DNA of 39,758 nt, from UHGV virus genome UHGV-0465656; one strand, given 5' to 3'. Positions 14,957 to 33,151 of the stretch are shown here, in pieces (the first letter of the stretch is position 1; every line of letters begins with the position of its first letter). A program made the translations under genes and the position numbers. This stretch comes from a virus. Under the pieces are notes generated by a model. The model saw only the letters and a program-made list of their open reading frames with translations, was not told where the DNA came from and made no database searches.

Positions 14957-15174
14957 GGTTTATTGAGGTTGATGAGATTGGCTATGAGAATGCACTTGGT
15001 AGAGGTAAATCTTTAGTTAACATTGATGGCATTGAATCGATAAGGAGTGGTGAATTTACGGAGATCAGAATGATGTCAGGCGGAATCATTCCTTGCCGTG
15101 ACTCAGTAGAGTCAATCAAATCAAAAATGAGTGGTCAGTGGCTTTATAGCTACAGTGACTTACAAAAACAGTGA
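14953..15174 (+). CDS. Hypothetical protein (73 aa) between arc and ant
   Basis: ATGA overlap with arc stop; no recognisable motif. Confidence 0.4.
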   Translation: MRFIEVDEIGYENALGRGKSLVNIDGIESIRSGEFTEIRMMSGGIIPCRDSVESIKSKMSGQWLYSYSDLQKQ

Positions 15175-15204
15175 AGCCCCAACTGCGGTAACAGTCAGGG
15201 CTTC
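15173..15204 (-). terminator. Candidate terminator hairpin for an antisense (sar-like) RNA in the orf73-ant junction
   Basis: Stem GAAGCCC/GGGCTTC with inner ACTG/CAGT; on minus strand followed by ACUGUUUUUG. Confidence 0.3.
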
Positions 15205-15236
15205 GGTATCAACAAAACTTACGAGGTATTATTGAT

Positions 15237-20487: not shown

Positions 20488-20769
20488 TTAGCAATTGATA
20501 TTCACCTTTATCGCGTATACCTTTACCGGCTTATCACCGAAGTGGGGGTGTGTGATTGTTTTCACTTCATATCCTCCATACGGAACATCAATTCTGCGAC
20601 TGGAGTCGTCGCGCTTCGGATATCCCTTTGTGATAATCAGGCGGTCATACTCCCGGAACATAATTCGCTTATTCCAATAGTCATTACACAGGCGATACTC
20701 TTCCGTTTTCTCTCCTCGAATCATGGCATCGAAGTATTCACCTTTGACGGCAAGTTGCAGGTTAGCCAT
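20488..20769 (-). CDS. Hypothetical protein (93 aa)
   Basis: ORF track; overlaps upstream gene stop. Confidence 0.45.
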   Translation of the reverse strand: MANLQLAVKGEYFDAMIRGEKTEEYRLCNDYWNKRIMFREYDRLIITKGYPKRDDSSRRIDVPYGGYEVKTITHPHFGDKPVKVYAIKVNINC

Positions 20770-21064
20770 GGTTAACCTCCTGCGGAGTAGCCTTTACAAG
20801 CACTGGTGTAAATCCATCTTCATTAAGGTTATGAATATAGACTTCCGTTCTCCTGCGCTCTTCAGCGTTTAATATGGTTTCTGGATCATAAACCCATACT
20901 TTCATTCGACTATTCCATGAAGAAATCGCTTCAGATTTAGTTCGTTTTTCTGGTCCTTGGGCACCACATTTGCATGACACATAGCGCATTTCCCCTCTGA
21001 TACTGAATGAGTATCCGATGTTAAGCACAGTGGAACCACAGAATGGGCAGCGATATAGATTCAT
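20762..21064 (-). CDS. Lar-family-like zinc-ribbon protein (putative restriction alleviation)
   Basis: N-terminus MNLYRCPFCGSTV..CKCG..SSWNSR, the CPFCG..C.CG pattern recalled for the Lar family. Confidence 0.55.
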   Translation of the reverse strand: MNLYRCPFCGSTVLNIGYSFSIRGEMRYVSCKCGAQGPEKRTKSEAISSWNSRMKVWVYDPETILNAEERRRTEVYIHNLNEDGFTPVLVKATPQEVNHG

Positions 21065-21837
21065 AAATCATCCACCTTAGGCGCAGCTGAGACAGCAACA
21101 TTCCAGAACTCAGAAAACATAATGTATGCACCAGATAGATTGGAAGTGGCATACCCTCCAAGCTCACTTCTAATCTGAACGGCTCTCATCATTTCCGGGG
21201 TTAACTCCTTCGGCACTATAACCCAACCATCCGGAGTTACCGGAGAGTTGCCAGCCTGAACAGTAGGCATATCCGGACCTTTGCGAATCGACCTGGCAAG
21301 ATCGATTGGGTCGTCGTATAACCAGTCACCTGTTTGCGGATGATTGGCTTCTGCCAATTGTGCAGCCCACTCCAGGCCGTCTTTGTGTCCTTGCAGATAG
21401 TCCAGCGGTAACTCATCACTATTACTTACAGGTTCGGCCTGAAGCATGGCGGCGCGATAGGCGTTCCAGCCGACAGCTTTTCCGTGTTCAAACGCGCTGT
21501 CAAAGTCATCATCAATTTCCATCGCAGCGGGCACAGATACCGGCGCTGGCTGGGCGGTGTAGAGCGGCATTACCTCAATATTGAAGATATCCCCCTCGCT
21601 TGGACACGCCTCTGCGCTACCGTAAACCCAATGGTGAACGACTCCGTTACGCTTGTTGATTAATCTGTGCGCCCACGCCACAGGCTCCGCTTCGAGCGAT
21701 GCCAGCGCGATACGCGCATTATTAATCAGGAGGATATCAGCAGGAAATAAAACAACATGAGCGTTTCCCTCCGCATCAATTTCAGAATTCGTAATTTTTC
21801 TGAACAGCTTTGCCAGTTCTTTGGTAATAGTGCTCAT
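21061..21837 (-). CDS. Hypothetical protein (258 aa from ATG 21837)
   Basis: ORF 21061..21876; start chosen at MSTITKELAKL with ATGA overlap to upstream stop. Confidence 0.5.
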   Translation of the reverse strand: MSTITKELAKLFRKITNSEIDAEGNAHVVLFPADILLINNARIALASLEAEPVAWAHRLINKRNGVVHHWVYGSAEACPSEGDIFNIEVMPLYTAQPAPVSVPAAMEIDDDFDSAFEHGKAVGWNAYRAAMLQAEPVSNSDELPLDYLQGHKDGLEWAAQLAEANHPQTGDWLYDDPIDLARSIRKGPDMPTVQAGNSPVTPDGWVIVPKELTPEMMRAVQIRSELGGYATSNLSGAYIMFSEFWNVAVSAAPKVDDL

Positions 21838-22079
21838 GACTGCATTCCCTCCACGCGAGCTTCTATCATGCCCCACACAACTTCGTGCTCAGGCCAGTCG
21901 CTTTCAACAACGACACATGACAGTTCGTCTTTACCGCGCTGCTGCCGAACTTGTTTTACTGCAAGCGCAGCATTTTCCAGCCCGTCCAGCGTTTCAGGAG
22001 AGATCAAACCAGTTTGAAAGGCAGCCTCAATGTCAGAAACCTTCAGAACGAAATAACGATTTTCTCTTTTCACGTTCAC
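21834..22079 (-). CDS. Hypothetical protein (81 aa)
   Basis: ORF track; translationally coupled chain. Confidence 0.45.
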   Translation of the reverse strand: MNVKRENRYFVLKVSDIEAAFQTGLISPETLDGLENAALAVKQVRQQRGKDELSCVVVESDWPEHEVVWGMIEARVEGMQS

Positions 22080-22369
22080 TCTCCTTTACCGGCTGCGGCG
22101 GCCGACTCTTCATAGGCGCGTTTGGATGCATTCATAATGGCCGCCAGCGGTGAGTAAGCCCCTCCACCTGTGATAGTGTTGTGAATGGCAGCCATTGCCT
22201 CGCGCAGATTTCCGTGGCTCGCCTCCAGCTCAGCAATCCTCTTCTCTGCGGCCTCCAGCTCATCCAGCAGCGCCAGAACGGTTTGTGAATGTATATCCAT
22301 GTTGAACACGCCATGCTCTTGAGCTTTCTCTGCTGTTTTGCGCAGCGCCTGTTTGTCGATGTTGCTCAT
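22076..22369 (-). CDS. Hypothetical coiled-coil protein (97 aa)
   Basis: Start MSNIDKQALRK at 22369 (ATGA overlap); shares N-terminal pattern with the next gene. Confidence 0.5.
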   Translation of the reverse strand: MSNIDKQALRKTAEKAQEHGVFNMDIHSQTVLALLDELEAAEKRIAELEASHGNLREAMAAIHNTITGGGAYSPLAAIMNASKRAYEESAAAAGKGE

Positions 22370-23058
22370 TGGGCGGCCTCCTTGCGAAGTTGGGCGGCGC
22401 GAATTGCTTTCCACTGCGACCACATTCCGTTGTAATCAGTACCGGAAAGAGTTGAGTTGCGGTAGCCGTCATCAGTGCGCAAACCTTCTAGCGTGGTCTT
22501 AGAGATGAATATCTTCTCCATTACCCATTCTTCGAATAAATCACGCTCCGTCGCTTCATCTGGAATAGCACTTGCCCGTACTTCAGCCAGGAAAGCGTCG
22601 GTGGCTGGGGTTTTGTTATCTGACTCCAGCCACTGGTTGTAGTAATAATCGAACATGCCAGTAGGATAACCACATCCGCTGTGCACGTGGTCTTTCATAG
22701 CAGAACCACACATGCAGTAGTCATTGTCAGTATTACTAATGATGTCGATAAGTTGCTGTGTCCGTTGCTTCAACATCGCACTCTCCGCCGCCAGCGCCGA
22801 AAACTTCTCGTGTGCCAACTTAACAGCTGCATCAGCCTGCTTAATTGACTCAGTCGCTTTCTGGTGGTCTTCGGCCAGCCCTGCTAAATCAGCCTCCAGT
22901 TCGGCTAGGCGTTCATTTAATGCATCTCGTTCATCCAGTAGAGCCAGCACAACCTGAGGTGTGACTTTCATACGAAATGCCAGCAATTTTTGAGGTGTTG
23001 CTACTGTTTCAATTGCTACTGCTGCCTCACGCAGTGCCTGATAGTTAATTTTGCTCAC
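22366..23058 (-). CDS. Hypothetical protein (230 aa, GTG start), N-terminal coiled coil, Cys/His-containing C-terminal domain
   Basis: (M)[16 protein letters not shown]..; paralogous N-terminus to the 22076..22369 product. Confidence 0.5.
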   Translation of the reverse strand: MSKINYQALREAAVAIETVATPQKLLAFRMKVTPQVVLALLDERDALNERLAELEADLAGLAEDHQKATESIKQADAAVKLAHEKFSALAAESAMLKQRTQQLIDIISNTDNDYCMCGSAMKDHVHSGCGYPTGMFDYYYNQWLESDNKTPATDAFLAEVRASAIPDEATERDLFEEWVMEKIFISKTTLEGLRTDDGYRNSTLSGTDYNGMWSQWKAIRAAQLRKEAAQ

Positions 23059-26255: not shown

Positions 26256-26582
26256 TCAAATAAGTGGCTTGCTGCCTAATTTCATTTTCTGGCGACCAAC
26301 ACAAGTCACACCCATTTCACTGCGTGGCTTGCTGTACCATGTGCGCTGATTCTTGCGCTCAATACGTTGCAGGTTGCTTTCAATCTGTTCGTGGTATTCA
26401 GCCAGCACTGTAAGGTCTATCGGATTCAGTGCGCTTTCTACTCGTGATTTCGGTTTGCGATTCAGCGAGAGAATTGGGCGGTTAACTGGTTTTGCGCTTA
26501 CCCCAACCAACAGGGGATTTGCTGCTTTCCATTGAGCCTGTTTCTCTGCGCGACGTTCGCGGCGGCGTGTTTGTGCATCCAT
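26256..26582 (-). CDS. N: Antitermination protein N (lambda type)
   Basis: MDAQTRRRERRAEKQAQWKAANPLLVGVSAKPVNRPILSLNRKPKSRVESALNPIDLTVLAEYHEQIESNLQRIERKNQRTWYSKP.., almost identical to recalled lambda N. Confidence 0.92.
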   Translation of the reverse strand: MDAQTRRRERRAEKQAQWKAANPLLVGVSAKPVNRPILSLNRKPKSRVESALNPIDLTVLAEYHEQIESNLQRIERKNQRTWYSKPRSEMGVTCVGRQKMKLGSKPLI

Positions 26583-31459: not shown

Positions 31460-31461
31460 CA

Positions 31462-31487
31462 GGGCCACTTACACAGTGGCCTTTTTA
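31462..31487 (+). terminator. Rho-independent terminator (GGGCCACT-TACAC-AGTGGCC + T5), tR2-like position
   Basis: 7-8 bp GC-rich stem followed by TTTTTA, between replication and nin genes. Confidence 0.7.
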
Positions 31488-32187: not shown

Positions 32188-32217
32188 CAGCCAGCCTTCT
32201 GGCATGTGGAGGGGAAT

Positions 32218-32496
32218 ATGGAAGAGTCACGGAAACAGTTTGAGCAGGAGATTAACAAAAAGTTTGGCGACCTTATCGACCAGCGTATCTGCAAAAATAG
32301 CGATGGCGATTATATGGCGTGGGATATGCAGGTAGCATGGTGGGCATGGCAGGCAAGCAGGCGGGCTATTGCGGTAAACCTCGGAAAGCCGATTTATGTG
32401 AAGCATAACGGTGACTATATCCATGCATGGCCAGCTTATAACGTTGATATAGCCATACGCGCCGCTGGTCTTACAGTAAAAGGGGACAGCAAGTGA
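32218..32496 (+). CDS. Hypothetical protein (92 aa)
   Basis: ATG 32218 within ORF 32206..32496. Confidence 0.45.
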   Translation: MEESRKQFEQEINKKFGDLIDQRICKNSDGDYMAWDMQVAWWAWQASRRAIAVNLGKPIYVKHNGDYIHAWPAYNVDIAIRAAGLTVKGDSK

Positions 32497-32744
32497 GCGA
32501 GTTGAAACCTTGTCCGTTTTGTGGGAGCTCTGTGAAATGGTGTGGTGAGCATGAGCATGACCCATCAGATAATCATCTTTGCGATCATATTCAATGCACA
32601 AATGAACATTGCAGGGCTGATTTTAGCTTTATCTATGGGAATGATCTTCTTCCAGATGACTGCGAAGATATGTCACCAGAAGAGATGATGGATATTTTTC
32701 GCAAAAAAAGCAGTTGGTTTGTACAACCAAAGGTCCAGCCATGA
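32493..32744 (+). CDS. Lar-family-like zinc-ribbon protein (second copy)
   Basis: MSELKPCPFCGSSVKWCGEHEH..; same CPFCG N-terminal signature as 20762..21064. Confidence 0.55.
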   Translation: MSELKPCPFCGSSVKWCGEHEHDPSDNHLCDHIQCTNEHCRADFSFIYGNDLLPDDCEDMSPEEMMDIFRKKSSWFVQPKVQP

Positions 32745-33151
32745 AACAAACAATCTTCCTTCGAAGTAAGCAACAACAGCAAGCTGCAATAAATGCCATC
32801 CTCGCAACACCACTCGATAAAGACAAGCCAGTCACCATCCGCATTACTGACTACAAGCGCAACCTTGACCAGAACGCAAAATTTCACGCGATGCTGGCGG
32901 ATATCGCTCGTCAGGTTCAATGGTGCGGAAAATGGTTAAAACCGGAACAATGGAAGGTTTTGTTGATCAGCGGTCATGCAGTGGCAACAAAACAGGAAGC
33001 TGATGTTTTGCCCGGGCTTGAAGGCGAATACGTCAACATTCGCGAAAGCAGCGCGCAGATGAGCGTGAAGCGTATGGCAAGTCTGATTGAGTACACGACA
33101 GCATGGGCTATTGGTCAGGGTGTCAGATTTACCAACAGGAGGTACGAATGA
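32741..33151 (+). CDS. ninB: NinB (Orf-family recombination mediator)
   Basis: ..[53 protein letters not shown].. parallels recalled lambda NinB. Confidence 0.8.

Follow-up and report, generated by a model that had tools for sequence, protein, structure and literature searches.

The label 'restriction alleviation' that Lar proteins carry reportedly originates from a genetic study of Lar of the Rac prophage by King & Murray in 1995. Lar has been described as acting in the manner of Ral: expressed from the leftward early operon, it alleviates restriction by the EcoKI family (Type IA) and enhances modification (PMC12707154; PMC4041452). [quoted passage not shown] Restriction alleviation by Rac Lar was contradicted by Guo et al. 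(2014), who reported for the protein, under the name RalR, toxicity as well as a Mg/Ca-dependent cleavage of DNA in vitro, a K52Q variant being inactive (PMC4041452). RalR (b1348, 64 aa; PF14354, TIGR03655, NF007260) combines a K-P-CPFCG knuckle with a second Cys pair and a helix ending in W-N-x-R, and its gene is flanked by recT and xisR/intR. A search of the newer literature for the mechanism of Lar-like proteins yielded only annotation-level mentions and a note on conditional essentiality in PhageMaP.

Here we analysed a stretch of 39,758 nucleotides (UHGV virus genome UHGV-0465656, hereafter the window), which by its sequence is the complete genome of a temperate E. coli phage, mosaic and P22/Sf6-like (Lederbergvirus-type). 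When the first 25 kb and both target regions were searched by megablast, Dewey, CurroJimenez_Bas106, Louie, IME10 and Sf6 came out as the nearest relatives. The two Lar-like ORFs proposed in a first-pass annotation were both present, ORF A at 20762..21064 on the minus strand and ORF B at 32493..32744 on the plus strand, and their placement in different operons held. ORF A lies distally in the leftward early operon, which on the minus strand runs from N (26256..26582) through Erf, Abc2 and three Ea22-like genes to ORF A, a 93-aa gene, xis and int, and thus takes the same relative place next to xis/int as ralR. ORF B is situated between the genes for a DnaB-type helicase and NinB in the rightward operon, which has the order cro/cII, O, DnaB-type helicase, a block of small genes, ORF B, ninB-ninH and Q.

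The DNA pattern encoding C-P-F-C-G (TGYCCNTTYTGYGG) occurred exactly twice in the window, at 21036-21049 (minus) inside ORF A and at 32511-32524 (plus) inside ORF B, and had no match in 100 dinucleotide-preserving shuffles, while a six-frame regex scan of the window gave no third Lar-like ORF. A K/RxCPFCG start had been ascribed to both proteins; CPFCG is indeed found in both, and ORF B reads K-P-CPFCG as does RalR, but in ORF A the R directly precedes CPFCG (R-CPFCG). ORF A shares an ATGA with the Ea22-like gene before it and 8 nt with the gene after it, and ORF B shares a GTGA with its upstream gene and an ATGA with ninB; both therefore look like real genes that are translationally coupled to their neighbours. 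The only local match between the two proteins spans eight residues, indicating that they are not recent duplicates; they probably separated long ago within the Lar (PF14354) zinc-ribbon family and are carried as independent mosaic modules.

ORF A (100 aa, ATG start) is a homolog of Sf6 gp20 and almost certainly belongs to the Lar family. It scored 36.2 bits against PF14354 over model positions 2-57 (gathering threshold 28.6) and 59.7 bits against TIGR03655 (cut-off 39.6), on which Rac Lar/RalR itself scored lower (55.3 bits), and it matched phrog_599, 'Lar-like restriction alleviation protein', with E = 2.4e-18. Alignment with RalR by hhalign covered 42 columns at 90.5% probability, extending from the knuckle through the W-N-x-R ending. 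The Lar zinc-ribbon domain of ORF A comprises residues 1-54 (20903-21064, minus), with a second Cys pair C31-x-C33 that would complete a putative zinc ribbon and a helix ending W50-N51-S52-R53 that is invariant across its family. Residues 55-100 (20765-20902, minus) form a C-terminal extension of about 45 aa that is conserved family-wide and constitutes an added domain relative to RalR. In the AF2 model this extension was predicted with moderate confidence (pLDDT about 80) as strand-helix-strand (E57-59/H67-83/E88-90), whereas the zinc ribbon had a pLDDT < 50 and is thus unreliable and too poor for a fold search.

At the DNA level, ORF A is 98.7% identical to gene 20 of Sf6 (NP_958196.1, 'Lar-like restriction alleviation protein'). 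Both genes are 303 nt long and preceded by an Ea22-like gene, and we found no difference of note between them; a literature search gave no experimental characterisation of Sf6 gp20. The ORF A gene was found in 154 of 5,426 complete E. coli genomes, and among the matches listed its PGAP name is 'Lar family restriction alleviation protein'. ORF A is in other words an ordinary, already-annotated Lar gene. The gene downstream of it (93 aa, 20488..20769, minus), which overlaps the ORF A stop, matched phrog_625 with E = 3.8e-50 and is labelled 'ASCH domain-containing protein' in related phage and genome records.

The affiliation of ORF B (83 aa, GTG start) is less straightforward. While ORF A passed both curated models, ORF B passed PF14354 marginally (30.1 bits, threshold 28.6) and partially (model positions 2-35 of 58), and failed TIGR03655 with 17.1 bits against the cut-off of 39.6. 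It belongs to a group of proteins, here called the WCGE clade, none of whose tested members reached the TIGR03655 cut-off (best 36.2 bits). The clade follows the pattern C-x2-C-x(4-7)-W-C-x(5-16)-H-x-C-(H/Q region)-I-x-C-x(2-5)-C, which was complete in 56 of 63 WC-type proteins, and a [WFY]-N-x-R motif was kept in 59 of the 63 (94%). It is thus characterised by eight conserved Cys/His, from which we infer two zinc sites, by an acidic spacer and by a terminal helix with an invariant N-x-R. In ORF B the second Cys pair is C35-x4-C40, and C17, H28, C30 and H32 are additional putative zinc ligands. Both the knuckle and the N-x-R ending of RalR are preserved in the intact ORF-B type, which has four more conserved Cys/His in addition to the acidic spacer, whereas the C-terminal motif is missing in the copy of the window.

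These data could be taken to mean that a generic CPFCG knuckle is all that ORF B, as an unrelated zinc ribbon, has in common with Lar, as its Pfam match ends at model position 35, its TIGR03655 score is far from the cut-off, and hhalign of its clade with the family of ORF A or with RalR covered no more than 12-16 columns, restricted to the first zinc knuckle. However, the clade members with a short spacer (P0028, P0034, P0040 and P0041) matched PF14354 end to end (2-57/58) above threshold with 30.5-38.7 bits, including the C-terminal WNxR, and therefore bridge the WCGE clade to the Lar family. Moreover, the clade shares the (W/F/Y)-N-x-R ending with canonical Lar proteins, and one of these, from a Providencia phage that encodes it in tandem with an ORF-B-type gene, has 50% identity to ORF B over 38 aa. 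An AF2 model of the intact form (P0001; mean pLDDT 87.4, terminal helix at residues 62-81) had a 64-aa 'restriction alleviation protein' as its best viral fold match, with a probability of 0.96 but E = 0.07. We therefore regard an unrelated ribbon as very unlikely, and ORF B very probably represents a rare, divergent WCGE branch of the Lar family. The domain searches thus placed neither ORF in an unrelated zinc-ribbon family, and the family assignment of the first-pass annotation stands in full for ORF A and with the above qualification for ORF B.

ORF B is a database-known but rare relative. Of the 5,426 complete E. coli genomes a single one had it, ET479, which carries no annotation for the gene. 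Two phages on record, Proteus Pm34 and Providencia PSTNGR2lys, have its type at 65% amino-acid identity. A word-indexed search of 5.8 billion proteins gave three clusters, and an exhaustive profile search of 1.84 billion representatives gave 57 proteins of the clade at E <= 1e-3. In PSTNGR2lys (L003, 3314-3755) a canonical 64-aa Lar (43.4 bits on TIGR03655) and a WCGE-type Lar are encoded in tandem with overlapping stop and start codons, and both proteins start with M-(S/N)-E-L-K-K-C-P-F-C-G-S and end with N-R-R-A-N-(D/S)-E. The likeness of these starts and ends suggests that the WCGE type arose through duplication and insertion. Another WCGE-type protein, P0024 of Providencia sp. (101 aa), continues after the acidic spacer with a different sequence (…KQLDERLDELHRVIDYLNESRRELINRHNLNKERL) that lacks N-x-R, and may represent a second natural C-terminal replacement in the clade besides that of the window.

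The C-terminus of ORF B is frameshifted relative to its family over the last 11 codons, a shift that the first-pass annotation had missed. The gene contains an A7 homopolymer at 32703..32709 (plus), which is also found in two other loci (L006 and L007), while nine others (L001 and L008-L015) have A6. Residues 1-72 are identical to P0001, and both P0001 and P0002 part from ORF B exactly after F-R-K-K; removing one A from the tract gives the exact P0001 sequence, i.e. the 91-aa form. From residue 73 onwards, the last 19 residues of the ancestral protein are replaced by an unrelated 11-residue tail, and the ancestral C-terminus persists as an out-of-frame remnant (32710..32769, plus) that is readable only with A6 or after a +1 shift. 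The A6 allele has the (W/F/Y)-N-x-R motif as Y77-N78-Q79-R80, which the copy of the window lacks; an alignment of 24 sequences shows N78 and R80 to be invariant, both are lost here, and the predicted terminal helix is interrupted. A sequencing error was considered and ruled out, as the exact 83-aa protein is on record on three contigs, and since L006 and L007 carry different immunity regions, A7 is a true allele in circulation rather than an error of the window sequence. A -1 shift on the same run (frames around 32660-32770) would lead into the frame of ninB, open from about 32660, with an ORF B-NinB fusion as the predicted product, while a +1 shift would restore the ancestral Lar C-terminus.

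Mutations that reduce the toxicity of RalR map to residues 14, 37, 39, 49, 51 and 52 (PMC4041452), and by direct numbering the homologous motif in the RalR translation is R49-W50-N51-K52-R53. The N-x-R of the ORF-B type thus aligns with RalR residues that are needed for activity. Because this motif is lost and the helix cut, we consider it fairly likely that ORF B of the window is functionally impaired, in which case the phage would probably have one intact Lar-type gene in effect. Alternatively, the A7 product could still work, either because the zinc module suffices or because +1 ribosomal or transcriptional slippage yields full-length protein, thus giving the phage two working Lar genes. 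Such slippage would give exactly the A6 product (…FRKKAVGLYNQR…), and the allele may be tolerated or even functional, since it persists in at least two prophage backgrounds and meets ninB (32741..33151, plus) at a neat ATGA, where the ninB start overlaps the ORF B stop, compared to an overlap of 29 nt for A6. However, N78 and R80 are invariant in the clade, the motif was kept in nearly all WC-type proteins, and the equivalent residues of RalR are required. In addition, over the 210 nt that precede the tract all copies except L001 (one mismatch) are 100% identical, indicating that the allele is very recent and perhaps an as yet unpurged mutation. We therefore find a functional A7 allele unlikely.

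The first-pass annotation had suggested that two divergent copies may reflect anti-restriction capacity against different host systems or with different timing. The genetic context does not point to different timing. No promoter-like site above chance was found for ORF A or ORF B, which could have marked either gene as a moron with its own promoter. Since both genes appear promoter-less and lie several kb into N-dependent early operons, with a terminator-like hairpin (9-bp stem and T-run, 31461..31483, plus; from a consensus scan only) preceding the nin cluster in a tR2-like position, both should be delayed-early. A paired capacity is also difficult to reconcile with the distribution of the two types, which assort independently: the prophage of ET479 carries an intact A6 form of ORF B (L001, 4593-4868), without PGAP annotation, and lacks the ORF A type. 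A lambda-type 'antirestriction Ral family protein' is encoded by the same prophage (L016, 14062-14262). Many prophage genes in this assembly are frameshifted. Likewise, none of 80 Ea22-like loci from IMG/VR had the ORF-A type within 5 kb. In view of these observations, of the frameshift, which deprives ORF B of the clade-invariant N-x-R, and of the dispute over restriction alleviation by the founder (PMC4041452), the idea of two working anti-restriction genes with different host targets or timing is not supported.

One or both Lar-type proteins of this phage could be non-specific DNase toxins like RalR, possibly as part of a toxin-antitoxin module, as the reported toxicity and DNA cleavage of RalR would suggest, and as ORF A has the whole domain in common with it. 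However, neither ORF matched NF007260 at E <= 1 (cut-off 113 bits, RalR 166), showing that neither is a RalR ortholog. The RalR system includes the antitoxin sRNA RalA (RF02694), which was not found in the window by an Rfam search that recovers Rac RalA with 225 bits, and DNA resembling the Rac ralR region was likewise missing from the window, as were antisense 14-mers. In place of K52, ORF A has Ser52 and the intact ORF-B type Gln79, the latter corresponding to the inactivating K52Q state, and ORF B of the window lacks this position altogether. As both genes are furthermore translationally coupled inside lytic early operons, we consider DNase toxins improbable. Pfam searches of ORF A, ORF B and the other early-left ORFs tested gave no match to the Ral family at E <= 1.

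A different possibility is that Lar-type modules, and especially the WCGE module, are portable binding cassettes for a host target other than Type IA restriction-modification, for instance a different defence system, or a protein or nucleic acid with which Ea22-like mosaic proteins interact. WCGE modules were also found inside Ead/Ea22-like mosaic proteins of 230-380 aa (e.g. P0020-P0030), as internal cassettes adjoining those of PF04447 (dATP/dGTP pyrophosphohydrolase) or DUF551. The embedded module is the same domain as in ORF B (E = 1e-27 to 1e-35), with the eight Cys/His and F-N-x-R, while ORF B of the window is stand-alone and frameshifted. Such fusions were found in five IMG/VR loci (L017-L021). 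Four of these (L017-L020) have the fusion gene on the same strand as O or DnaB and downstream of it; two of the four, L019 and L020, additionally have NinB downstream of the fusion, which thus takes the slot held by ORF B in the window. The N-terminal module had suggested an early-left location for all fusions, which was rejected on the basis of these four of the five loci; only the fusion gene of L021 appears early-left. A target other than Type IA is also in line with a Lar-like gene of Bas63, whose conditional importance was seen on strains lacking intact Type I systems and for which the authors suggested Type IV systems (PMC11482910), and with an unrelated 52-aa zinc-ribbon phage protein that inhibits AbiH and a retron (bioRxiv 10.1101/2024.06.14.598830). 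This evidence is circumstantial throughout, however, and fusions in highly mosaic proteins may represent recombination junctions rather than functional coupling, making portable cassettes a doubtful explanation at present. Still less probable is the extended proposal that WCGE is a two-zinc Lar-fold cassette directed against a non-Type-IA defence, in which A6/A7 serves as a reversible switch or tunes the dose of full-length protein by slippage.

Of the readings considered, we favour with moderate confidence that the phage carries two independent Lar modules, of which ORF A is orthodox and ORF B a frameshifted WCGE type, with Type IA restriction alleviation as the most likely mechanism. ORF A would thereby contribute a CPFCG knuckle, a second Cys pair and a W-N-S-R helix together with the conserved alpha/beta tail of 45 aa, and ORF B a rare WCGE branch situated in the nin slot, with the A7 copy probably impaired. 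By analogy with the founder, such a small delayed-early protein would bind the host Type IA restriction-modification complex via the surface formed by the helix and N-x-R, and the bound complex would shift from cutting to methylating unmodified phage DNA. For ORF A we tentatively consider this the single most likely mechanism, another target being the main alternative, and genuine restriction alleviation by ORF A is possible at somewhat less than even chances, whereas it appears unlikely for the ORF-B type.

As it stands the weight of these findings is small, since ORF A is routinely annotated and ORF B is rare but known, and their value is mainly cautionary. The label 'Lar family restriction alleviation protein' has spread from a single genetic result of 1995 that was contradicted by the study of 2014, and because it rests on this disputed result, counting Lar genes as anti-restriction capacity is unsafe. 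In the present phage the apparent redundancy of two Lar genes is probably not functional, as the second copy is a frameshift allele. On the other hand, the WCGE clade, with its eight ligands, invariant N-x-R, A6 and A7 alleles and stand-alone and fused forms, constitutes a natural allelic series for testing Lar function.

The neighbours of the two genes show further signs of mosaicism. The Ea22-like mosaic gene that is ATGA-coupled to ORF A (271 aa, 21061..21876, minus) matched phrog_60/phrog_660, and its product has the N-terminal module (ARIALASLEAEPV) as well as the DELPLDYLQGHKDGLEWAAQLAEANHPQTGDWLYDDP block and the GNSP.(I/T)PDG linker in common with P0020-P0030. It is the last of three Ea22-like genes clustered on the minus strand (22366..23058, 22076..22423 and 21061..21876; region 21061-23058), among which a small ORF of 81 aa (21834..22079, minus) is interspersed. 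Upstream of ORF B lies a phiTE_015-like gene (about 92-96 aa, 32206..32496, plus; phrog_343, E = 6.6e-21), which carries a PF26207 annotation and adjoins ORF B in every E. coli prophage copy examined. The weak match of its product to phrog_660 (E = 2.3e-6), a module of the 271-aa Ea22-like protein, hints that cassette exchange with Ea22-like proteins extends to other genes of the nin slot. A Pfam search of the neighbouring small ORFs gave nothing informative. The sole Rfam match in the window was a sar RNA (RF00262, 62.8 bits; Rfam gene family 'antisense') at 15170-15235 on the minus strand, which we take to be the antisense RNA of the P22 immI/ant region.
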